Positions 150 to 10,252 are shown, numbered from the stretch's first letter. The stretch: 10,252 bases of DNA from a virus (IMGVR_UViG_2690316285_000005); one strand, 5' to 3'. Notes: generated from the sequence alone by a model not told the origin. Program-made: numbers and translations.

Positions 150-2129
150 ATGGGAGTAGGGCTTGTAGATGGCACTACTGTAAGTTCTCTTGCGATGACA
201 AAGACGGGTACTCTAAGTATCTATGCAAAGAACGCTACAACCGCCTGGACACGCATATATACCGCTACACAGATGGACGGGCGATACGTACCCCTTACAC
301 GTACCATCAACGGCCATGCACTCACGGCCAATTTAGTACTGAACAGTGAAGATACAGGTTCAGTACCTGATACACGTACTGTGAATGGTAAGCCTCTAAG
401 TGAGGATGTAGTACTTACCAGTACTGATACCGGCTCTGTACCAGATACACGGACAGTTAATGGTCATGTACTCAGTGAAGATATAGTACTGAGTAGTGAA
501 GATACAGGTTCAGTACCTGATACACGTATGGTCAACGGTCATGTACTCAGTGAGGATGTAGTACTTACCAGTACTGATGTTGGCTTAGGGAAGGTTACAG
601 ATGATGCCCAGCTTACGATAGCAGGTAATCTAAGTGATCTGGGGGACGTGGAAGAAGCACGTATTAACCTTGCTGTTTACTCAATGGATGAAGTAGATGC
701 AGAGGTAACGGCTTTAGCTGACAGTATTACTTCCCTTGATTCCGCTTCCATGAAGAAAGCGAGTAACCTTTCTGATCTATCCAGTCTCTCTACAGCACGT
801 ACTAACCTACAGGTGAACCGTTTGACTCAGGGTGCTACGTACACCGATCTGATGAGTAATGACCTGACTAACCGTATCCGAATTCAGGATAACGGGGCAT
901 GGGGTGCAAGTACTGGTACTGGATGGATTGCTTTAGGTATAGGTCAGGGGGGGACAGGGGCTACAGATGCTTTGAGTGCTCGCCTAAACTTTCAGGTGGA
1001 TCGCTTTAATCAAGGTAGTAATTTAACAACTATTAAATCCGCTGATTCTTCCGCTGCATTAGTGGTTTATGATGGAGGGCAATGGGGTTCAGCTACATAT
1101 ATTGCGGGTGCTTTCACTGGCTGGAAAGCATTAGCAATTCCGCAGGGCGGTACTGGTGTTAAGACTCAGGCTGAGTTATGGCCTGCGATTCGTCCTACGG
1201 GTGCAACTTCTTTAGCAGGAGATCCTGTCTCTGATTCTGACGCGACTACCAAACGCTGGGTTGAAAACTTGCTGAGTAGTCGTACTTCAGTTAGTCCTCA
1301 ATGGGATGTTATTGCTTCTTCCCCTTCCTCTACGGCAATTGGTAGTTATGTAACTGGAGGGCGTATTCGTTCGATATGCAACATTGGTACATCAACTGAA
1401 ATATCTGGTGGTTTTCGGGTTGGTAAAACGATGGGACAGACTGGACAGGCTGATCTCACCCTTTTTATTTCTGAAAATGGTGCAGAGGATAAACTATGGG
1501 GGCTAAAAGGGCCGACTGGAACGATCCTAACTGATGTTCAATCAGGATGGATGACTAATACCGCTGTTTCGGGACCGACAGATGCCAATACCATCACCTT
1601 TAACGGTATGTATGCAGGGCCAGGTGACTCAGGTATTAACTATAGTGAAAAATATTCCCCTTTATTGCACATGCAAAGATACCCAGGGGCAAATCGCTCT
1701 CAGCTTCAGATAGACGGTGGTGGTACTTTAAGAGTACGAGGCGGGAACGGTACAACATGGTTTGGATGGTTAGTAATGCAAGCTCAAGGTACATCAGGTC
1801 GTGAGTTTAAAAGAGACATAACTCCAGCAAATCCAGTTGAAGCATTAGATCGGATAATGTCACAAGATTTAGTAACGTTTATCTACAAGGATGATGAACA
1901 AGAAAGGGTTAGGTTTGGTGTTATCGCCGAAGATGCTGAGTTGACTGCTCCGCAGTACATTAAGCATGATGAAGAAACAGTTGAAATAGAAGGGGAGATT
2001 GTCACTCGTGATCATCCACGTGTTGATTTAAATCCAATAGTGATGGACTTGATGGGAGCTATTCAAGCCCAACAAGAAGAAATTAATCAGCTAAAAGATT
2101 TAGTACAACAGCTATTAAATAATAAATAA
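150..2129 (+). CDS. Phage fiber protein (tail or neck/collar fiber) with tandem fiber repeats and a C-terminal intramolecular chaperone (peptidase S74-like) domain
   Basis: 659-codon ORF. Residues ~51-146 are four 25-aa repeats (consensus approx. RTVNGxxLSEDVVLTSxDTGSVPDT) typical of phage fiber repeats. The C-terminal ~110 aa (SGREFKRDITPANPVEALDRIMSQDLVTFIYKDD...GVIAEDAELTAP...) matches, from memory, the endosialidase/T5 pb1-type chaperone domain with its S-x4-K spacing. The ATG at 150 has only a weak SD, and the frame is open upstream to 24 with no start codon, so the true start is uncertain. Confidence 0.7.
   Translation: MGVGLVDGTTVSSLAMTKTGTLSIYAKNATTAWTRIYTATQMDGRYVPLTRTINGHALTANLVLNSEDTGSVPDTRTVNGKPLSEDVVLTSTDTGSVPDTRTVNGHVLSEDIVLSSEDTGSVPDTRMVNGHVLSEDVVLTSTDVGLGKVTDDAQLTIAGNLSDLGDVEEARINLAVYSMDEVDAEVTALADSITSLDSASMKKASNLSDLSSLSTARTNLQVNRLTQGATYTDLMSNDLTNRIRIQDNGAWGASTGTGWIALGIGQGGTGATDALSARLNFQVDRFNQGSNLTTIKSADSSAALVVYDGGQWGSATYIAGAFTGWKALAIPQGGTGVKTQAELWPAIRPTGATSLAGDPVSDSDATTKRWVENLLSSRTSVSPQWDVIASSPSSTAIGSYVTGGRIRSICNIGTSTEISGGFRVGKTMGQTGQADLTLFISENGAEDKLWGLKGPTGTILTDVQSGWMTNTAVSGPTDANTITFNGMYAGPGDSGINYSEKYSPLLHMQRYPGANRSQLQIDGGGTLRVRGGNGTTWFGWLVMQAQGTSGREFKRDITPANPVEALDRIMSQDLVTFIYKDDEQERVRFGVIAEDAELTAPQYIKHDEETVEIEGEIVTRDHPRVDLNPIVMDLMGAIQAQQEEINQLKDLVQQLLNNK
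300..587 (+). repeat. In-frame tandem repeat, 75-nt units (25 aa), about 4 copies, arranged as a 150-nt A-B super-unit duplicated
   Basis: Exact 34-nt identity between 345-378 and 495-528 (agtgaagatacaggttcagtacctgatacacgta) and exact 30-nt identity between 399-428 and 549-578 (agtgaggatgtagtacttaccagtactgat), both at a 150-nt offset. The protein repeats are in register. Confidence 0.85.
1794..2126 (+). other. Putative autoproteolytic intramolecular chaperone domain of the fiber protein (candidate catalytic Ser at codon 1794-1796, Lys at 1809-1811)
   Basis: The motif T-S-G-R-E-F-K followed by DITPANPVEALDRI...LVTFIYKDD...FGVIAEDAELTAPQYI resembles the S-D-x-R-L-K ... ALDKL ... GFIAQEVEEV pattern of peptidase S74 chaperone domains, recalled from memory. 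A coiled-coil-like tail (QAQQEEINQLKDLVQQLL) follows. Confidence 0.5.
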
Positions 2130-3012: not shown

Positions 3013-3407
3013 GAGGTGATATCGAATTAAAGTACTTTTGTAAGATGGTTAACAAAAGAGGCTTATCACCTGAAGAATACTTTAGTTTAGATCCTGATGT
3101 ACTCAATATGCTTATGATCTACGATACTTTTATAGAACCATCCGGTACGCAGATTGAAATGATGAAACATGCGTACCAGTGTTACTACACCACTATCAGT
3201 AATGGCAACCTAACACCAGAAGCAAGGAAAAGTATCAAGGTACAGGATTTTGATTTTCTTGATGTGCTTAGTGATAGTACTAAGAGTACTTCAGAGAAAG
3301 CTGAAGAAAGAAAATTAAAAACTAAAGAGGCTCAATCCAATGATATTAAATCTATAGGGGAGTTAATTAAATCTCAGGTATTAGGAAAGAAAAAGAATGG
3401 CAAATAA
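2713..3407 (+). CDS. Tail assembly chaperone frameshift fusion (lambda GT-like), produced by a -1 shift at 3003-3009
   Basis: The upstream frame (start 2713, residue 1 mod 3) and the downstream ORF (3045-3407, residue 0 mod 3) are related by a -1 shift. The predicted junction reads ...VDEVEKK / VRGDIELKYFCKMVNKRGLSPEEY..., giving a product of about 231 aa. Its end overlaps the tape measure start (3397) by 11 nt. Confidence 0.65.
3003..3009 (+). promoter_or_regulatory. Slippery heptamer A_AAA_AAG for -1 programmed ribosomal frameshifting
   Basis: In the chaperone frame the codons are gaa-aaa-aag-taa. The heptamer A AAA AAG (3003-3009) is the classic dnaX-type shift site. The -1 frame is open from 2997 (a stop lies at 2994-2996) through 3407, and the downstream ORF has no SD before its first ATG at 3045. 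Confidence 0.7.
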
Positions 3408-5610
3408 TAATAGAATACGTGTAGATATTACGGGTGATTCTTCCGGTTTACAGCGTGCTTTAAGGTCTGGTACTGAATCATTAGAGGAATTTGGTAGTAC
3501 TGCTGGTGGCATTGTTGAAGAGTTCACAGGCCGAATAACTGGTATGGCTGGCGGGTTCGGTACTGCTATGACCGGGATCGCGGGTGCTGCGGCTATTGGT
3601 ATTGGTGGCCTGGCAGCATTAGTAGAATCATCACGTGAATATGTGCGTGAAATGAACCAGATCAGTAAGAGTACCGGATTGTCCGTGGTTCAGTTACAAC
3701 AGCTATCAGCGGCGTTTAGTGGCCTCGGTCTTGAGATTGATAAGTTTGGTGATTTCAACAAGGATACCTTGGATAAGCTCGGTGATGCTTTTCGTGCTGG
3801 CGGTGGTGTATCCGATGATCTTAAAGAATATGGACTCAACCTACAGGACTATAACAAGTACTTAAAACAGGCTGATGGTGGTATGCAGGCTGTGATCCAC
3901 ACCTTTTACGCCATGCGTGATGCAGGTAAATCACAGAGTGAAATAGTTAACGTAATGGAAACGTTAGCCAGTGACTCAAGCCACATGATTAGTACTCTTC
4001 AGCAGTTCAATAATGAGGCTCAAGCTACAGCCTATATCCAGTCACAAAATGCTGAAGTAACTAATGATGCTGCTGAAAAATATGCTGAATTCGATAAAAA
4101 CCTTGGGAAACTTACTACCAGCATTAAAGGTACTATTGCTGATGGCCTATCACCTTTAGTTAATGCCATGAACAGTGTCTATGATGCTGCAAATCAAAAA
4201 CCTCACGAGGCAGGTTTGTTTGAAGATCTGAATGAACGTATTAAAACTTCCAAGGGTTCTCTACAGGATATGTTGGATATCTGGGAAAAATTACGTACAG
4301 CAGGGGCATTAAACTACCAGGGTGCAGCACTCAATACTGGCATCATGGATGATAAGGGCAACAAGGGTAATGAGTTCGCTCAGGCTAAGGCACGTTTAGA
4401 AGAACTGGCAAACAACCTAAAGTCCGATGTTGCGGTTGCTACCGCTCCTACTGGCGGATGGGTTGATCAGGCAAAAGAAGCTGAAGATGCAGCGAAGAAG
4501 TTAGAACAACAACGTAAACAGGCAGAAGCGGCACAAAAGGCGGCAGATGCAAAACGCCTACAGGCTCAACGTAATCTGGAAGCTGCTCTTGCTCAAGTTG
4601 GGGAAGATGGTTTTCAGGTACGTCTACAGCAGTTCGACAGACAACAAAAGGCACTTCTTAAAACCATCACCGATAGTGCTCAAGTACTCGGTATCAATCC
4701 TGATGAAATGCTAAAGAACGCTACTGCATATGGTGCTAAACAACGTACTGATTTACTGAATTCAATGGTTGGTTATCAAGATCCTAATCAGGGTCTGAAA
4801 GATACCAATGCTCTTATTGGTTCCGGTCTACTCAATGACAATCAGAAGGGGTATCTGGCACAGCAACAGAATCAGCGTATCAATGGTGGTAATCCATTAG
4901 CCTATAACGATACCGATCAGAAGTTGAAAGATAACGCTGATGCTATGAATGCTGAACTTCAGCAGAATGAGTTGTTGCTGAAAGGCCATGAGGACTATGA
5001 GAAACGTAAAGCTGAGATCACGGCAAAGTACAATGCACAGGCCATCCAAATCAGTAACCAGAATGCACAGGATCAGTTAAGTATCTTCTCAAGTACTGCA
5101 CAGTCACTATCACAGGGCATGGTTGATGCGTTTGGGGAAAGTAGTGGGGCTGCACAAGCTGCATTTACCCTAAGTAAGAGCATAAGCATTGCACAGACAG
5201 TACTTTCAATTCAGTCAGCATTGGCCCAAGCACTCGCTACCCCTTGGCCAGCTTCATTGGCAAACTATGCACAAGTACTTTCACTTGGTATGTCGATTAT
5301 TAGTACTGCAAAGGGTGCTGCTGCTGGTCAGTTCCATGGCGGGGTAGATGAACTACCAGCAAGTTATGACAACAAATCATTTGTACTTAAGCAGGGCGAG
5401 AGAGTGGTGCAGCCTGAAGCGAATAAGAAATTAACAGCATTCTTGGATAAACAAGAAGGTGGAAGTACTTCAGGTGATATTACCGTTAACGCACCATTGA
5501 TCATCCAGGGTGATGTAGCTGATGATGACAAGAAATTTAATGAGATGCTTAAGAAACACGCCAATAGTGTTTCTCAAGCTGTGAGAAGTAGTCAAAAACG
5601 TAATACATAA
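3397..5610 (+). CDS. Tail tape measure protein
   Basis: 737-aa ORF immediately after the G/GT chaperone pair. It has a Gly/Ala-rich hydrophobic segment near the N-terminus (GMAGGFGTAMTGIAGAAAIGIGGLAAL), long Ala/Gln/Lys-rich, probably coiled-coil, stretches (EQQRKQAEAAQKAADAKRLQAQRNLEAALAQ) and a hydrophobic C-terminal region. This is the typical tape measure architecture. Confidence 0.85.
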   Translation: MANNNRIRVDITGDSSGLQRALRSGTESLEEFGSTAGGIVEEFTGRITGMAGGFGTAMTGIAGAAAIGIGGLAALVESSREYVREMNQISKSTGLSVVQLQQLSAAFSGLGLEIDKFGDFNKDTLDKLGDAFRAGGGVSDDLKEYGLNLQDYNKYLKQADGGMQAVIHTFYAMRDAGKSQSEIVNVMETLASDSSHMISTLQQFNNEAQATAYIQSQNAEVTNDAAEKYAEFDKNLGKLTTSIKGTIADGLSPLVNAMNSVYDAANQKPHEAGLFEDLNERIKTSKGSLQDMLDIWEKLRTAGALNYQGAALNTGIMDDKGNKGNEFAQAKARLEELANNLKSDVAVATAPTGGWVDQAKEAEDAAKKLEQQRKQAEAAQKAADAKRLQAQRNLEAALAQVGEDGFQVRLQQFDRQQKALLKTITDSAQVLGINPDEMLKNATAYGAKQRTDLLNSMVGYQDPNQGLKDTNALIGSGLLNDNQKGYLAQQQNQRINGGNPLAYNDTDQKLKDNADAMNAELQQNELLLKGHEDYEKRKAEITAKYNAQAIQISNQNAQDQLSIFSSTAQSLSQGMVDAFGESSGAAQAAFTLSKSISIAQTVLSIQSALAQALATPWPASLANYAQVLSLGMSIISTAKGAAAGQFHGGVDELPASYDNKSFVLKQGERVVQPEANKKLTAFLDKQEGGSTSGDITVNAPLIIQGDVADDDKKFNEMLKKHANSVSQAVRSSQKRNT

Positions 5611-5620
5611 GAAAGCCCAG

Positions 5621-6193
5621 TTAGGGATTTTCCGTGTGATAAGACAAATATTGTGAAAGAGAAGATGAAAGGGTATAGAGATTGTAATACTCTTCCCGCA
5701 ATAATTTAACTTTAGGTGGTGAGTATTTAATATTGTATGCAAGCTGTGTTGAAAGAGTACGTAATCTCGATAATGAATAATAACTCTTTACGATGGCATC
5801 TACTTCTTTTTTTGGGAGTGATGCTAATTTTTCTAATTGGGAATAATATACATCATCATGCAAATAAGAAACGGCAGTTGCTACTCTTTTAATAGCTTCT
5901 GTATCTTCAGTTGGAAGAGGAATACATATTTCATATGTGCCTAACACCTGAGACTCATCGCCACCAGTAGCAAGAGCTAAAAGGTTATTGTTGATTTCGC
6001 TCAATAAGATTACACGCATCTTAAAAACATCATCTGAACTTTCTTTCCATTTATCATATGCGTTATAGCCTATTTGGCCTGCAAATAACAACATAGCAAC
6101 GATGACGGATGCAGCCTGCCAATCAAGCCTGTTAAAAAAAATACGAATCGAGGTTTTTAAATAAATAAAGAAAGAAGATATTCGAGGTAACAA
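5621..6193 (-). CDS. Hypothetical protein, probably membrane-anchored; moron-like accessory gene encoded antisense to the tail operon
   Basis: The only long ORF on either strand in the 584-bp gap between the tape measure stop (5610) and the next tail gene (6195), and it fills the gap exactly. Read from the TTG at 6193 (an AGGA lies about 8 nt upstream on the minus strand) it gives 190 aa with a hydrophobic segment WQAASVIVAMLLFAGQIGYNAY near residues 25-46. The region is visibly more AT-rich than the flanking genes. The start codon is uncertain: the first in-frame ATG corresponds to 6094-6092 but would cut the hydrophobic segment. No known domain was recognised. Confidence 0.5.
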   Translation of the reverse strand: MLPRISSFFIYLKTSIRIFFNRLDWQAASVIVAMLLFAGQIGYNAYDKWKESSDDVFKMRVILLSEINNNLLALATGGDESQVLGTYEICIPLPTEDTEAIKRVATAVSYLHDDVYYSQLEKLASLPKKEVDAIVKSYYSLSRLRTLSTQLAYNIKYSPPKVKLLREEYYNLYTLSSSLSQYLSYHTENP

Positions 6194-6194
6194 A

Positions 6195-6752
6195 ATGGCA
6201 TCCTTTTCAAATCAAATAAAAGTAACGAACTTTCAAATTAAAAGTACTGAACCGATCTATTCTAATCAAACATGGACAGGTCAACGTATCATGAGAAGTA
6301 CTGGAATTCAATACTATCAAATTCAGTTCACCCTTAATTTTAATCCTGCATCACTAAATGAAGTGAATAGCTTTTTAGCTCAATATGCACAGGGCAAACC
6401 TTTCACTATGTCATTGGGGCTTGCAGGTACATATTACGGTAAACAGACTGGTGCAGTAACCGCTACTGCTCTCACTAAACCGGGTAATATGGTTGTACCT
6501 ATCAGTACTAACACATTAGCTGTGGGTGAGTGGGTACAGTTTTCCAATCACAATAAGCTATATCGAATCGTAGAACGTACCAGTACTTCAATTACTATTT
6601 TCCCTGCTCTACAAAATACAGTACAGGCAAGTGAAGCACTCAAATATAACAATCTCATGATCGAGGCTGTATTAGATCCAGACAATGATTATTCATTGCC
6701 TATTGGGAACATCATGAATATTACATTGAAAGCAACGGAGAATATCATCTAA
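6195..6752 (+). CDS. Minor tail protein, distal tail (lambda gpM-like) candidate
   Basis: 185-aa ORF, first gene after the tape measure gene in the + direction, with a GAGGT RBS 6 nt upstream of the ATG. The segment YYQIQFTLNFNPASLNEVNSFLAQYAQGKPF resembles the lambda gpM family pattern (..YSVTLS...LESFLEEHGG.KSF..) as I recall it. The stop overlaps the next start (TAATG). Confidence 0.5.
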   Translation: MASFSNQIKVTNFQIKSTEPIYSNQTWTGQRIMRSTGIQYYQIQFTLNFNPASLNEVNSFLAQYAQGKPFTMSLGLAGTYYGKQTGAVTATALTKPGNMVVPISTNTLAVGEWVQFSNHNKLYRIVERTSTSITIFPALQNTVQASEALKYNNLMIEAVLDPDNDYSLPIGNIMNITLKATENII

Positions 6753-7375
6753 TGGACTCAGGTATATATACTAATGCTAATCTTCTTAAGTACTGGAAGT
6801 TAGTCAGAGGTACAACCAAGACAAGATTAACACTAATGGAAATTATGAGCTTAGGCGTTAATGTTACTTGTTTTGATGTACTACCAAAAGGTACTAATGG
6901 TTTTCACTGGACGGATTCACTAATTGATATAGATCTGGATGGTTATAAGTACATAAGTTTCCCCGACATTATCAGTGGTTCATTACCTTCATATTCTGAA
7001 CAAAAGGGCATGTCTAATGATGCTATCAATTTTAAAATTAGCAATGTAAACGCCTCGGTTCGTGCTCTTGCCCTTGGTGGTTTCTTGAAAGATGCACAGA
7101 TGAATATCAAGTTAGTAATTCTCAATCCATATGATAGTACTGTAATTGATTCAATGCTCATGTTTACGGGGTTTATTGACTATGTACAGGCAGTAACTGA
7201 TCCAAATCAGAAGCAAAACGAAATGACTATATATGTGAATTCTGTCTATAAGAAATTAGACAGACAACCTGCATTAATTGCCGCCAACTCAGTATATCAA
7301 TCTTACTATAGAAATGATGAGTACTTTAGTCTGTTAGGTCAAGTTAATCAAAATCAGAACTGGAAATACAAGTAA
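6752..7375 (+). CDS. Minor tail protein (lambda gpL-like) candidate
   Basis: 207-aa ORF, translationally coupled on both sides through overlapping TAATG stop/start sequences at 6750-6754 and 7373-7377. The position matches lambda L. There is a loose resemblance to gpL in the region GYKYISFPDIISGSLPSYSEQKGMSNDAINFKISNVN. It lacks a Cys cluster. Confidence 0.5.
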   Translation: MDSGIYTNANLLKYWKLVRGTTKTRLTLMEIMSLGVNVTCFDVLPKGTNGFHWTDSLIDIDLDGYKYISFPDIISGSLPSYSEQKGMSNDAINFKISNVNASVRALALGGFLKDAQMNIKLVILNPYDSTVIDSMLMFTGFIDYVQAVTDPNQKQNEMTIYVNSVYKKLDRQPALIAANSVYQSYYRNDEYFSLLGQVNQNQNWKYK

Positions 7376-7779
7376 TGAAAAATCTACATAATGAAGTAAT
7401 GAGTATTATTCAGTACTCAATTGATAACCCATATAAGTATGGTGATAACGATTGCAACATTATAGTACTACGCCTTATTGATTTAATTAATGGTACTACA
7501 CAGTTAACTAATCGCCAGTATTCGAGCATTAAAGAAGGTATAGCAGGTTTAAACAAGGAAGGATGGAACCATACAGGGGAAATTGTTGAAGCGTACTGTA
7601 AGCCAGTACAAGCCACTATAGACGGTGATATCTGGTTAGATCCTGACAACCCATTAATTATGGCAGTAGTGGCATCTGGTCGGGTACTTGGAGTAAATGC
7701 TGATCATGATGGTTTCGAACTTCAACCAAAACCAACAGAGGGAACATATTACAGAGTAAGGAAACAGAGAGATGGGTAA
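7375..7779 (+). CDS. Tail protein with a putative NlpC/P60 (C40 peptidase) fold, resembling the C-terminal half of lambda gpK
   Basis: 134-aa ORF with the motif YKYGDNDCNIIVLRL (candidate catalytic Cys) and downstream GDIWL...VVASGRVLGVNADHDG (candidate His), resembling the gpK NlpC/P60 half (G.TDC...GDVLL...H). No JAMM/MPN motif was found. It overlaps the next gene by 8 nt. Confidence 0.5.
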   Translation: MKNLHNEVMSIIQYSIDNPYKYGDNDCNIIVLRLIDLINGTTQLTNRQYSSIKEGIAGLNKEGWNHTGEIVEAYCKPVQATIDGDIWLDPDNPLIMAVVASGRVLGVNADHDGFELQPKPTEGTYYRVRKQRDG

Positions 7780-10228
7780 GAGTTTAGGGGGCTTTTTTGG
7801 AGCCATAATTACGGCAGTTGTCGTCGCGGCTGCTGTGTACTTTTCAGGAGGTACAGCATTAGCAGCAATAGGTTGGGGTGCAGCAGCCGGATCTTTGTCA
7901 TTAGTTGCAAGTTCTATGTTAGGTCAAATCGGGGTTTCTGGATACGGTGATGTAGCAGACTCACTAAGTAGAAGTACTTCACCAACTACTGGATTACCCG
8001 TTATATACGGTGGAGAACTACCACATAAAAATGGTGTATCAGGCGGTTCCTTCATCCTAACCGGAAGCATAGTAGCCTGGTACAACGTACCAAATTCTGA
8101 TTCTCAGTACTTATTCTCAGAACAGGCTGTAGCATATGCTGGTGTAGAAAAGCATATCGAGCAAATCTATATTGATAATGAGCCAGTACTTGCAGTACCG
8201 ATTACAGCAGAGGGTGTAGTACCTAAAGAAAGTATTGCAGCGAAGTACCAGAACTATTTGCAATTAGAAGTACGATTTGGTGGTGACTATACGAGTACTA
8301 AAACTCTTGCTGCAAAATATGCTGGTTCGAAATGGACAAATAAATTTCTTGGTAAGGGTATTGTTAGTATCAGTACCGTTATCTTAAAAACTCAAGATTC
8401 ATTAGAAAATAATATTCTTGTTAATGATCAATTCGCTTTAACTGTAGAAATGAAAGGGCAGGTGATTTATGATTTTGTTGATGGTACTTATAAAGCAAGT
8501 AGTAACCCTCCTTCAATTATCTATGATTACTTAACAAATTCAATCTATGGTATGGGTATTGATCCATCATTGATTAATACCGATACGTTTGCAGAAACCG
8601 CAGCATATTGTGATGCTTTTGAATATTATGCTAATGGTGCTATCAGTTATCAAAAAACCTATAAAGATAATATTGAAAATATCTGTCAGTCATTTGGCGG
8701 CATCATGTATGTACATGCCGGACAAATCTGTATTACCACAGACCGCAAATCGGTATCCGTAGCCTCATTTGATGAGCGTAACATGGTAGGGGCGGTACAG
8801 GTTTCTACTTCTGGCGGTACTGACTACTTCAACGTAGTCGATTGCAAGTTTACTAACCCTGAATCGATGTACACCACTGACGTAGTACGTATCCCTTCCG
8901 ATATCACTACGGATGAAGCAGTACAGCATGATGGACAGGTCATAGCATTATCACGCGATTACTCATGGTCATATGATCAAGAGGTGATTGCAAAAATGGC
9001 TAACGTTGATGTACTCAAGGCTAAGTATGCCCTGCGTACTATCAGCTTCACCACAAGTGAAGGTTGGGATCTCGAAGTATGGGATGCGATCAATGTCAGC
9101 AATGAAGAACTCGCTATCTCAGGCAAATTTAAAGTACTCAATAAAGATATCAGCACCGATCAAGAGAACGTTGGCTATGTAACCATCACGGCAGTAGAAG
9201 CACCTGATGCAATGTATGATGGTATTGATCCGGGTATCTGGTCGCCTGGTGGGGTAATTAACTTCCCTGAACTACAGGTACTACCGCCAACGAACCTACA
9301 GGCAGTACGTAAGGGGAATACTACTTCTGGTTCAATCGTGGATCTTACCTGGGATGCTTCACCAGATCCGTATCTGCGTGGGTACTATGTTTACTACCGT
9401 CTTAACGGTTCCAGTACCTGGACGTATGCGGGGCAGACTGGCGTACAGAAGCTTGATTATGAATTATTTGGATTGTCTGATACTGCAAGCTACGACTTTT
9501 CGGTAGAGGCTTACAACAACTTAGGGCTGGTATCCAAGAAGCTTTCCCTAACTGGCATTGTTCCAACATTCAACTTTGCACTACCTGCGGTAACGCGTGT
9601 AGTACTGACAAATAAAACAGAATCAGCGTATGTAACTGACTCACCAGATTTCAATATTGCCTGGGATTCACAAAAAGATATCAGAGTGAATAACCGATCA
9701 TTTAGTGAGTACTTCAAGTATTACGTTATTAAAATCTATGACGGTACTAAATTAGTAGATACATTCTATACGCAAAGTAATGCCTTTAATTTCACTCTTG
9801 AAATGAACCGTCTGAAAGTACGTAAGCCTACCATTGGTATTATCGCACAGGGATTTAATGATGGTACATATTCAGAGGAAGTGAAAATAACCGTAGAGAA
9901 TAAACAGTGTGGTTTAGTAGAGGATGTTAGCTTTACGGGTGGTTTTGGTAATTTGTTTGCTTCATGGACTAAATCTACTGAACGTGATTATGCAGGTGCG
10001 ATTATCAGTATTGTTAATGGTACTAATACACGTATATTCACCAGTTATGCACCTGAATTTGATTCAATACCAAACATCACTGATGGTGAGTATAAGGTTA
10101 AGATGGGATTCTTTGATGTGTTTGGTACTGATGATATTCAATATTGTCCAGAACAAACAATCAGTATCAACTCCAAGTACCAGTTTACCGAAGATGATGC
10201 AGAGGCAATTAACGGGATTCTGAGGTAG
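7772..10228 (+). CDS. Central tail fiber / host specificity protein (lambda gpJ-like) with an N-terminal domain resembling the C-terminal part of lambda gpI
   Basis: 818-aa ORF. N-terminus GGFFGAIITAVVVAAAVYFSGGTALAAIGWGAAAG...LPVIYGGE resembles the Gly/Ala-rich hydrophobic C-terminal region of lambda tail assembly protein I. Segment SNPPSIIYDYLTNSIYGMGID...AAYCD (about 8500-8640) matches the conserved gpJ-family motif (NNMAWCLWDMLTHPRYGMG...QYCD). A fibronectin type III-like module (LTWDASPDPYLRGYYVYYRLNGSSTWTYAG...YDFSVEAYNNLGL) lies at about 9296-9550. Confidence 0.8.
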   Translation: MGKSLGGFFGAIITAVVVAAAVYFSGGTALAAIGWGAAAGSLSLVASSMLGQIGVSGYGDVADSLSRSTSPTTGLPVIYGGELPHKNGVSGGSFILTGSIVAWYNVPNSDSQYLFSEQAVAYAGVEKHIEQIYIDNEPVLAVPITAEGVVPKESIAAKYQNYLQLEVRFGGDYTSTKTLAAKYAGSKWTNKFLGKGIVSISTVILKTQDSLENNILVNDQFALTVEMKGQVIYDFVDGTYKASSNPPSIIYDYLTNSIYGMGIDPSLINTDTFAETAAYCDAFEYYANGAISYQKTYKDNIENICQSFGGIMYVHAGQICITTDRKSVSVASFDERNMVGAVQVSTSGGTDYFNVVDCKFTNPESMYTTDVVRIPSDITTDEAVQHDGQVIALSRDYSWSYDQEVIAKMANVDVLKAKYALRTISFTTSEGWDLEVWDAINVSNEELAISGKFKVLNKDISTDQENVGYVTITAVEAPDAMYDGIDPGIWSPGGVINFPELQVLPPTNLQAVRKGNTTSGSIVDLTWDASPDPYLRGYYVYYRLNGSSTWTYAGQTGVQKLDYELFGLSDTASYDFSVEAYNNLGLVSKKLSLTGIVPTFNFALPAVTRVVLTNKTESAYVTDSPDFNIAWDSQKDIRVNNRSFSEYFKYYVIKIYDGTKLVDTFYTQSNAFNFTLEMNRLKVRKPTIGIIAQGFNDGTYSEEVKITVENKQCGLVEDVSFTGGFGNLFASWTKSTERDYAGAIISIVNGTNTRIFTSYAPEFDSIPNITDGEYKVKMGFFDVFGTDDIQYCPEQTISINSKYQFTEDDAEAINGILR

Positions 10229-10252
10229 CCTGAGTTTAACGGACACTCCTTC

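Follow-up and report, generated by a model that had tools for sequence, protein, structure and literature searches.

A predicted counterpart of lambda gpI at the N-terminus of a J-like hub protein in a prophage tail-tip cassette

Layout of the tail-tip cassette

The window analysed here is the whole 10,252-nucleotide (nt) stretch of the virus IMGVR_UViG_2690316285_000005, 10.25 kb that make up the tail module of a siphovirus-type prophage. The subject of this study is the segment 6195-10228, in which a stand-alone NlpC/P60-fold protein of 134 residues is followed by a J-like hub protein whose N-terminus resembles the C-terminal half of phage lambda gpI. Four genes lie in this segment and are tightly coupled, with successive overlaps of 1, 1 and 8 nt (6195-6752, 6752-7375, 7375-7779 and 7772-10228). 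The features of the segment are as follows.

6195..6752, plus strand: Dit (distal tail protein), 185 residues, the first gene of the cassette; matches phrog_1302 'distal tail protein' (E 7.9e-17)
6752..7375, plus strand: small hub-like protein, 207 residues; matches phrog_2048 'tail protein' (E 7.7e-24)
7375..7779, plus strand: stand-alone NlpC/P60-fold protein, 134 residues; Pfam family DUF6950
7453..7455, plus strand: codon of Cys27 (in GDNDC), equivalent to the nucleophile of NlpC/P60 proteins; helix 27-39 begins here
7657..7659, plus strand: codon of Ile95, at the canonical catalytic His position, at the start of strand 96-100
7705..7707, plus strand: codon of His111 (in NADHDG), in the loop between strands 103-107 and 114-117
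7772..10228, plus strand: J-like central tip or baseplate hub protein; PF13550, fn3 and phrog_31
7772..7945, plus strand: J-like residues 1-58, Gly/Ala-rich, with two predicted helices (9-24 and 30-50); putative counterpart of gpI H1/H2 and of the RcGTA and R4C megatrons' iris/penetration domain
7958..8044, plus strand: J-like residues 63-91 with LPVIYG (nt 7994-8011); putative counterpart of gpI 177-201 (LPVLYGEMRVG)
8099..8191, plus strand: J-like residues 110-140; putative counterpart of lambda gpJ 20-54, where the separate J of lambda starts

The open reading frames (ORFs) at 7375-7779, with its GDNDC and NADHDG motifs, and at 7772-10228 lie where a first-pass annotation of the window had placed them. 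The order Dit, hub, small peptidase and megatron found across 6195-10228 is that of genes 013-016 of roseophage R4C. The segment is probably a tail-tip cassette composed of Dit, a small hub, an NlpC/P60-fold protein and a J/megatron-type hub, laid out as in R4C and in the gene transfer agent RcGTA; this degree of confidence applies jointly to the layout, to the correspondence with gpI described below and to the roles suggested for the proteins.

The N-terminus of the J-like protein resembles gpI

In the lambda structures obtained by cryo-electron microscopy, gpI from about residue 101 to 223 forms part of the tip, with the hydrophobic helices H1 and H2, a plug and strands that augment the gpJ sheets, and the plug closes the channel beneath the C-terminus of gpH (PMC11101478; PMC10721106). 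The first-pass annotation had proposed that a hydrophobic segment of this gpI C-terminal type makes up the N-terminus of the J-like protein, and both the collinear profile matches and the shuffle controls bear it out. Residues 1-58 of the J-like protein contain 21% Gly, 21% Ala and a single charged residue; lambda gpI 96-155 contains 23% Gly, 23% Ala and likewise one charged residue. In hhalign comparisons, J-like residues 5-42 align with gpI 99-133, which comprises helix H1 and the WGAA motif (E 5.7e-5), residues 63-91 align with gpI 177-201 (E 1.1e-4), and residues 110-140, taken alone, align with gpJ 20-54 (E 3.3e-3).

The order of these matches is tested by a joined chain of gpI(95-223) and gpJ(1-200). 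One collinear alignment spans the artificial gpI|gpJ junction, with a score of 44.3, a P value of 2.7e-6 and an hhalign probability of 88.6-92.6% (92.6% in global mode). None of 200 block shuffles, in which local composition is kept (mean score 18.0, maximum 29.7), and none of 200 part shuffles (maximum 23.4) reaches 44.3, and the score falls to 34.8 when the gpI and gpJ parts are placed in swapped order. Within the second block, P76, Y79 and G80 are invariant in close and remote J-like proteins, and a motif of the LPVIYG type is also present in proteins P0145-P0147, in ORF20 of Acinetobacter phage Loki and in metagenome contig L018.

The Gly-rich helices H1/H2, the plug and the C-terminal strands that characterize TAPI proteins (gpI 99-223) are accordingly recognized here at the start of J. 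As judged from sequence, the J-like protein opens with ~100 residues that are the collinear counterpart of gpI from about 99 to 201, comprising two predicted hydrophobic helices, a linker or plug and an LPV(I/L)YG strand, and this gpI-like part runs directly into the segment equivalent to the start of gpJ. Annotators can mark the first ~100 residues of such J/hub proteins as equivalent to the structural C-terminal half of gpI. Pairwise BLASTP between the J-like N-terminus and gpI stays below significance, and a Pfam search with the isolated N-terminus (E<=10) returns noise only; the latter is uninformative, since PF06805 spans only the ubiquitin-like (Ubl) part of gpI, residues 14-97.

Conservation of the fusion and absence of the Ubl and JAB domains

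A single ORF with a hydrophobic start directly follows the DUF6950 gene in seven of eight species-level loci. The same fusion is kept in all four near-identical chromosomal copies (L012-L015), in remote J-like proteins of 22-25% identity, which also carry '...PLPVIYG.xR..G', in ORF18-20 of the cultured Acinetobacter phage Loki, and in two contigs from metagenomes (L017 and L018) reached through distant DUF6950 members. An ORF-calling artefact is ruled out by this conservation. The eighth locus, L005, is a Buttiauxella metagenome-assembled genome in which, at 8390-8800, the J-like ORF begins at the equivalent of about residue 49 and the hydrophobic N-terminus lies outside the ORF; the split is probably a frameshift or an assembly error, not a separate I-like gene.

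No separate I-like gene or Ubl domain had been seen in the window at first pass, and the profile and translated searches agree. Among the 10 main ORFs of the window, neither Lambda_tail_I (Ubl, PF06805) nor Prok-JAB finds a match at E<=1; tblastn with the lambda Ubl and JAB/MPN domains is negative for the window as well as for eight related loci of 16 kb; and no Ubl or JAB domain is found in the downstream ORFs of the relatives. The J-like protein therefore has no counterpart of the N-terminal ubiquitin-like beta-grasp domain of TAPI (PF06805), and the 134-residue protein has no counterpart of the N-terminal JAB/MPN domain that TAPK proteins carry fused to NlpC/P60. The latter protein contains only three His residues (5, 66 and 111) and no HxH JAMM motif. 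JAB and Ubl are thus jointly absent while both partner halves persist, which fits the 2006 proposal of Iyer et al. that JAB and Ubl are a functional pair (PMC1779556), a single unit dispensable for the core tip machinery.

Family and fold of the 134-residue protein

The 134-residue protein passes the gathering threshold of DUF6950 (PF22262) with 34.6 bits against 27 (E 2.3e-8, profile positions 8-120 of 134), and PF22262 is carried by all 56 close homologues that have a precomputed Pfam domain. The AlphaFold model, built on a 24-sequence alignment, has a predicted local distance difference test score (pLDDT) of 92.4, and the protein has a papain-like alpha+beta fold, with the nucleophile helix packed on an antiparallel sheet. 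One domain uses all 134 residues and leaves no room for an MPN/JAB domain. With the DUF6950 match, the lack of a Prok-JAB match and the lack of HxH, the first-pass description of an NlpC/P60-like half without JAMM holds.

The link to known tail peptidases is provided by R4C gp15, which matches both NLPC_P60 and DUF6950 in Pfam and so ties DUF6950 to the NLPC_P60 tail peptidases. A DUF6950-family alignment of 56 members, collected by searching 1.84 billion representatives, aligns by hhalign with R4C gp15 over 122 columns (E 1.2e-4) and with lambda gpK (E 8.2e-5). The 134-residue protein is a single NlpC/P60-fold domain that corresponds to the NlpC/P60 part of gpK and to the tail peptidases RcGTA g14 and R4C gp15. 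Other comparisons give little: pairwise BLASTP against gpK is below significance, the shallow close-family alignment matches gpK by hhalign over 26 columns around the Cys only (E 0.4), and an NCBIfam search of all four tip proteins gives no match. A search of PDB sequences with the DUF6950 profile returned only viral polymerases (E 1.3), which were rejected as spurious.

The exact protein is present in many enterobacterial chromosomes of ~4.9-5.0 Mb, with a nucleotide identity to the window of 99.5-100%, and more distant copies occur in Kosakonia, Pluralibacter, Scandinavium, Pseudescherichia, Buttiauxella, Phytobacter, Enterobacter, Pseudocitrobacter and Mangrovibacter. Several NCBI records (P0002, P0019, P0022, P0036, P0041 and P0051) call the DUF6950 protein 'ornithine carbamoyltransferase', a label that appears to be a propagated misannotation. 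DUF6950 proteins can instead be named tail-tip-associated NlpC/P60-fold proteins.

Cys27 and the replaced canonical residues

The Cys in GDNDC had been put forward as the candidate nucleophile, and its position and conservation uphold the proposal. The hhalign alignments pair Cys27 with the nucleophile Cys of R4C gp15 and lambda gpK, at the N-terminus of the core helix where the catalytic Cys of NlpC/P60 proteins is expected, and the GD motif of the DUF6950 family falls on the GDL/GDV of R4C gp15 and gpK. Cys27 is conserved in 24/24 close relatives and 56/56 distant representatives, and Asp26 in 24/24 and 55/56, respectively.

The remaining catalytic positions are occupied differently. Ile95 aligns with the His residue found in 'FAHVGIL' of R4C gp15 and in 'PNHAAIY' of gpK, and Gly106 sits at the position of the third residue in the alignment with R4C gp15, so that neither the catalytic His that opens the second core strand nor the polar third residue (His, Asn, Gln or Glu) that closes the next strand is present. 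In the canonical His column, none of the 24 close relatives has His (Ile in 22, Val in one, Thr in one), and His is found in eight of the 56 distant representatives. His111, which the first-pass annotation had taken as the candidate catalytic His, lies five residues past Gly106 and off the canonical column; it is conserved in all 24 members of the close subfamily, with His in six of the 56 distant representatives, half of which have no His in either candidate region. His111 is therefore not the canonical catalytic His. Given the replacements at Ile95 and Gly106, any catalysis must pair Cys27 with a non-canonical partner, e.g. His111; otherwise the role would be non-catalytic. An invariant Cys without a conserved His poses a small puzzle about the role of the K-type protein in tip assembly.

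Proposed function and alternative explanations

If the structures of lambda, RcGTA and R4C are taken as models, the lumen of the tip would contain three J N-termini, placed beneath the C-terminal end of the tape measure protein, where they would close the channel. Upon receptor binding the hub would open, and the released hydrophobic helices may then insert in the outer membrane. The 134-residue NlpC/P60-fold protein would be needed for assembly of the tip; like RcGTA g14, for which this has been proposed, it may in addition be carried in the lumen and cut peptidoglycan as a peptidase.

Several observations weigh against this explanation. The pLDDT is below 50 for the N-terminal 73 residues of the J-like protein in the AlphaFold2 model, which leaves the helices 9-24 and 30-50 at the level of a prediction. 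The similarity to gpI lies partly in low-complexity hydrophobic sequence, with modest single hhalign matches (probability 57-66%), and the hhalign comparison of the J-like N-terminus with the N-terminus of the R4C megatron is below significance. In the 134-residue protein the canonical His and the third residue are replaced, which makes peptidase activity doubtful, and the protein has no direct match to PF00877 (Pfam, E<=10) or TIGR02219 (NCBIfam, E<=1), models that lambda gpK and R4C gp15 do match. For the 207-residue protein, the hub role is indicated by its position and one PHROG match.

The resemblance of the hydrophobic J N-terminus to gpI might be compositional only, the segment being an unrelated membrane anchor or signal-like sequence. 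The Gly/Ala/Val-rich low complexity, the non-significant BLASTP result and the lack of a Pfam model on the segment agree with such an origin, but shuffles that keep the composition of each block reach at most 29.7 against the real 44.3, the non-hydrophobic LPV(I/L)YG block matches by itself, and order and spacing are collinear with gpI and then gpJ, so this explanation is very improbable. That the fusion arose artefactually, from a separate I-like gene merged with J by a frameshift or a sequencing error, is hardly credible: the split N-terminus in the L005 assembly and the decay of the prophage lineage through insertion sequence (IS) elements could be read this way, but an ORF with the same start is found in seven of eight loci, in the 1100-residue allele of L015, in the remote homologues (22-25%), in Loki and in the metagenome contigs.

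As for the 134-residue protein, it may be a pseudo-enzyme whose NlpC/P60 fold is kept only for a function as tip assembly factor or chaperone, without peptidase activity. This is possible and deserves attention, yet we consider it unlikely. The replacement of canonical residues by Ile95 and Gly106, the canonical His in only 8/56 and the lack of His from both regions in half of the 56 are in its favour, as is the failure to find gpK in lambda virions (PMC10721106); a Cys27 retained in 56/56 and an Asp26 in 55/56 would be unusual for a dead enzyme, His111 is kept in 24/24 of the close subfamily, and RcGTA g14 degrades peptidoglycan (PMC7296036). A protease that cuts J between the gpI-like segment and the hub domains, at about residues 92-110, and so frees a plug peptide would recreate the two-protein state of lambda post-translationally. 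In its favour, the two genes occur side by side throughout, with an 8-nt overlap, the lambda I|J boundary maps inside a single polypeptide here, and processing of TAPI by TAPK peptidase domains was suggested by Iyer et al. (PMC1779556). There is, on the other hand, no conserved cleavage motif, the catalytic dyad is incomplete, and the N-terminal helix is modelled within the megatron chain in both RcGTA (PMC7296036) and R4C (PMC10276861); the chance of such cleavage appears slim. A broader conjecture holds that DUF6950, in every case encoded directly upstream of a J-type protein with the gpI-like membrane segment in cis, is a distinct NlpC/P60-fold lineage that has kept an invariant Cys (56/56) and lost the canonical His and third residue; it would not be a cell-wall peptidase and would act on the J N-terminus during tip assembly, either cleaving it or holding it, covalently or transiently, via Cys27. 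The conjecture is speculative and would surprise us; if true, such a protein would achieve without Ubl and JAB what lambda K achieves by acting on I. The preferred explanation remains a tip cassette in which the gpI-like segment is built into J as a putative channel closure and the NlpC/P60-fold protein serves tip assembly, possibly with a peptidase function.

Core and truncation of the J-like protein

Beyond the gpI-like segment, the protein is a genuine J/baseplate-hub protein. It matches PF13550 (28.6 bits against a cut-off of 23, E 1.5e-6), fn3 (26.7 bits against a cut-off of 25) and phrog_31 'central tail fiber J' (E 1.8e-48), and it presents the succession typical of the BHP family, with the hub domains HDII-HDIV (the PF13550 region) followed by FN3; for this succession the Foldseek E values run from 6e-19 to 1e-15. 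Against PDB sequences, the family profile finds T5/DT57C pb3 (E 1e-22 to 1e-24), the T1 tip protein (5e-20) and lambda gpJ (2e-10); Foldseek with the J core returns T5 pb3 (6e-19), JBD30, Chi, T1, lambda gpJ and RcGTA, with E values from 1e-19 to 1e-11.

The first-pass annotation had described an 818-residue J-like protein; the J identity stands on PF13550, phrog_31 and Foldseek, and the length does not, being the product of an IS truncation of a protein that is 1100 residues long when intact. In the window, 817 of 818 residues are identical to the intact allele (L015). Identity ends at nt 10221, the reading frame is cut after codon 817, and the TAG stop (10226-10228) is supplied by an IS600-like element.

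10221..10252, plus strand: left terminal repeat of an IS3-family IS600-like insertion sequence; the 31 nt beyond 10221 are the end of the element

A 48-nt query (window 10205-10252) is matched in 3143 of 5426 E. coli genomes, and at H27 a gene annotated as 'IS3-like element IS600 family transposase' follows the matching sequence, which lies 33 nt upstream of it. What this copy of J has lost, 283 residues at the C-terminus, includes the PF09327 Phage_Tail_Tip domain, which is present in the intact relatives (L004, E 1.2e-19; L015), and this loss makes the window copy as a whole non-functional. Among the near-identical chromosomal copies, L012-L014 have IS elements inserted elsewhere in this gene, which is intact in L015; insertions at such varied positions indicate that the prophage is decaying.

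Searches of the INPHARED phages give little. Megablast with window 5600-10252 matches the IS end alone, and tblastn yields no match for the 134-residue protein and one weak match for the J N-terminus. A word-indexed protein search with J residues 1-250 and 1-500 recovers mostly truncated fragments.

The hub-position protein and neighbouring genes

The 207-residue protein occupies the position of lambda gpL, RcGTA g13 and R4C gp14, and is assigned as a hub on that position and its PHROG match. No family is matched in Pfam or NCBIfam, nothing significant is found among PDB profiles, and hhalign against gpL and R4C gp14 is below significance, though the usual hub motifs align; the equivalence to gpL/g13 thus stays positional. 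Its sole Cys is Cys40, and with a single Cys it cannot carry the 4Fe-4S cluster typical of gpL/g13-type hubs. The preceding Dit ORF (6195..6752) also has a weak match to PF21430 (pb9 B-domain).

The other genes of the tail module lie upstream of the cassette.

150-2129: fibre gene with a Peptidase_S74 chaperone
2188-2661: tail tube gene
Between the tail tube gene and the tape measure gene in the gene list: two chaperone ORFs
3397-5610: tape measure gene
5621-6193, minus strand: opposite-strand ORF of 190 residues, phrog_3829 (function unknown)

The 190-residue minus-strand ORF separates the tape measure gene from the Dit gene; at the equivalent site, six of eight related loci leave no space for such an ORF, which gives it the appearance of a moron. 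The position of the fibre gene upstream of the tail tube gene is unusual. The fibre gene contains a 75-bp (25-residue) tandem repeat in three copies (window 351-578), and its length varies among otherwise near-identical chromosomes (883, 808 and 622+286 residues).

Comparison with known systems

Relative to lambda, the order of functions L, K, I, J is shared: the 134-residue protein corresponds to the NlpC/P60 half of gpK, J-like residues 5-91 to gpI 99-201 and residues 110-140 to the N-terminus of gpJ; the J cores are homologous, and the intact relatives keep PF09327. Lambda differs in carrying JAB on K and Ubl on I, both absent from the window, in having I as a separate protein where the putative C-terminal half of I here forms the N-terminus of J, and in the catalytic His residues of gpK, which are not conserved in the 134-residue protein. 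The gpK protein is not detected in lambda virions (PMC10721106).

In T5, pb3 is the best profile and Foldseek match of the J core, and the plug is also located within the hub polypeptide (PMC10721106); gpL, gpI and gpJ's N-terminal part together correspond to the single pb3 chain (PMC11101478; PMC10721106). Unlike the J-like protein, pb3 includes the gpL-equivalent HDI domain, and its plug is an insertion inside HDII and not an N-terminal extension.

Acinetobacter phage Loki provides a cultured relative. Its ORF19 belongs to DUF6950 (PF22262, E 6.6e-16) and is the best BFVD structural match to the 134-residue protein, with a 178-residue protein encoded upstream and, downstream, an 820-residue PF13550+fn3 protein with a hydrophobic N-terminus and the motif MVYGKARISG. 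ORF19 differs in its low identity (17%) and in having neither the canonical His nor an equivalent of His111, and the Loki cluster differs by ORF17 (L016, 14917-17619), a 900-residue 'non-contractile tail sheath protein' (PF23844/PF23845) between the Dit and hub-position genes.

The closest layout is that of RcGTA, with Dit, hub, small NlpC/P60 peptidase and megatron (PMC7296036), and likewise of roseophage R4C (PMC10276861). Gene order is identical to RcGTA g12-g15 and R4C gp13-16 (L011 genes 013-016), and neither system has Ubl or JAB; deletion of g14 in RcGTA (delta-g14) gives heads that lack tails. Residues 1-46 of the RcGTA megatron form a hydrophobic iris/penetration domain (PMC7296036), and R4C is described likewise (PMC10276861); the megatron thus begins with a hydrophobic, Gly/Ala-rich domain that closes the channel, and the J core of the window matches the RcGTA and R4C chains in Foldseek. 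In RcGTA, the 150-residue peptidase g14 breaks down peptidoglycan, and tail formation depends on it (PMC7296036). Among the differences, the R4C proteins match DUF2460, Phage_phiJL001_Gp84_N/BR0599 and GTA_TIM, none of which is matched in the window; the hub-position protein has 207 residues against 291 and does not carry the four Fe-S-cluster Cys; gp15 of R4C keeps the canonical His pair that the 134-residue protein lacks; and the J core of the window is nearer to T5 pb3 and lambda gpJ than to the megatron.

Variants of this kind were already catalogued by Iyer, Burroughs and Aravind in 2006, who listed TAPK versions with NlpC/P60 only and prophages with fused TAPI-TAPJ (PMC1779556). Those variants are defined by the presence of Ubl, unlike the J-like protein of the window, which has only the Gly-rich region and TAPI-C. 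The non-canonical K/I/J arrangement noted at first pass is therefore non-canonical in relation to lambda and otherwise not, the RcGTA/R4C layout and the 2006 variants being known. The domain shuffling then suggested for the tail-tip machinery is not supported as a recent or local event: the cassette is conserved in Enterobacteriaceae prophages, in Loki and in metagenomic contigs, and such wide conservation of a layout known from RcGTA, R4C and the 2006 survey argues against a recent or unusual rearrangement here. In conclusion, the arrangement differs from that of lambda and is not new, being known from gene transfer agents and several phages.

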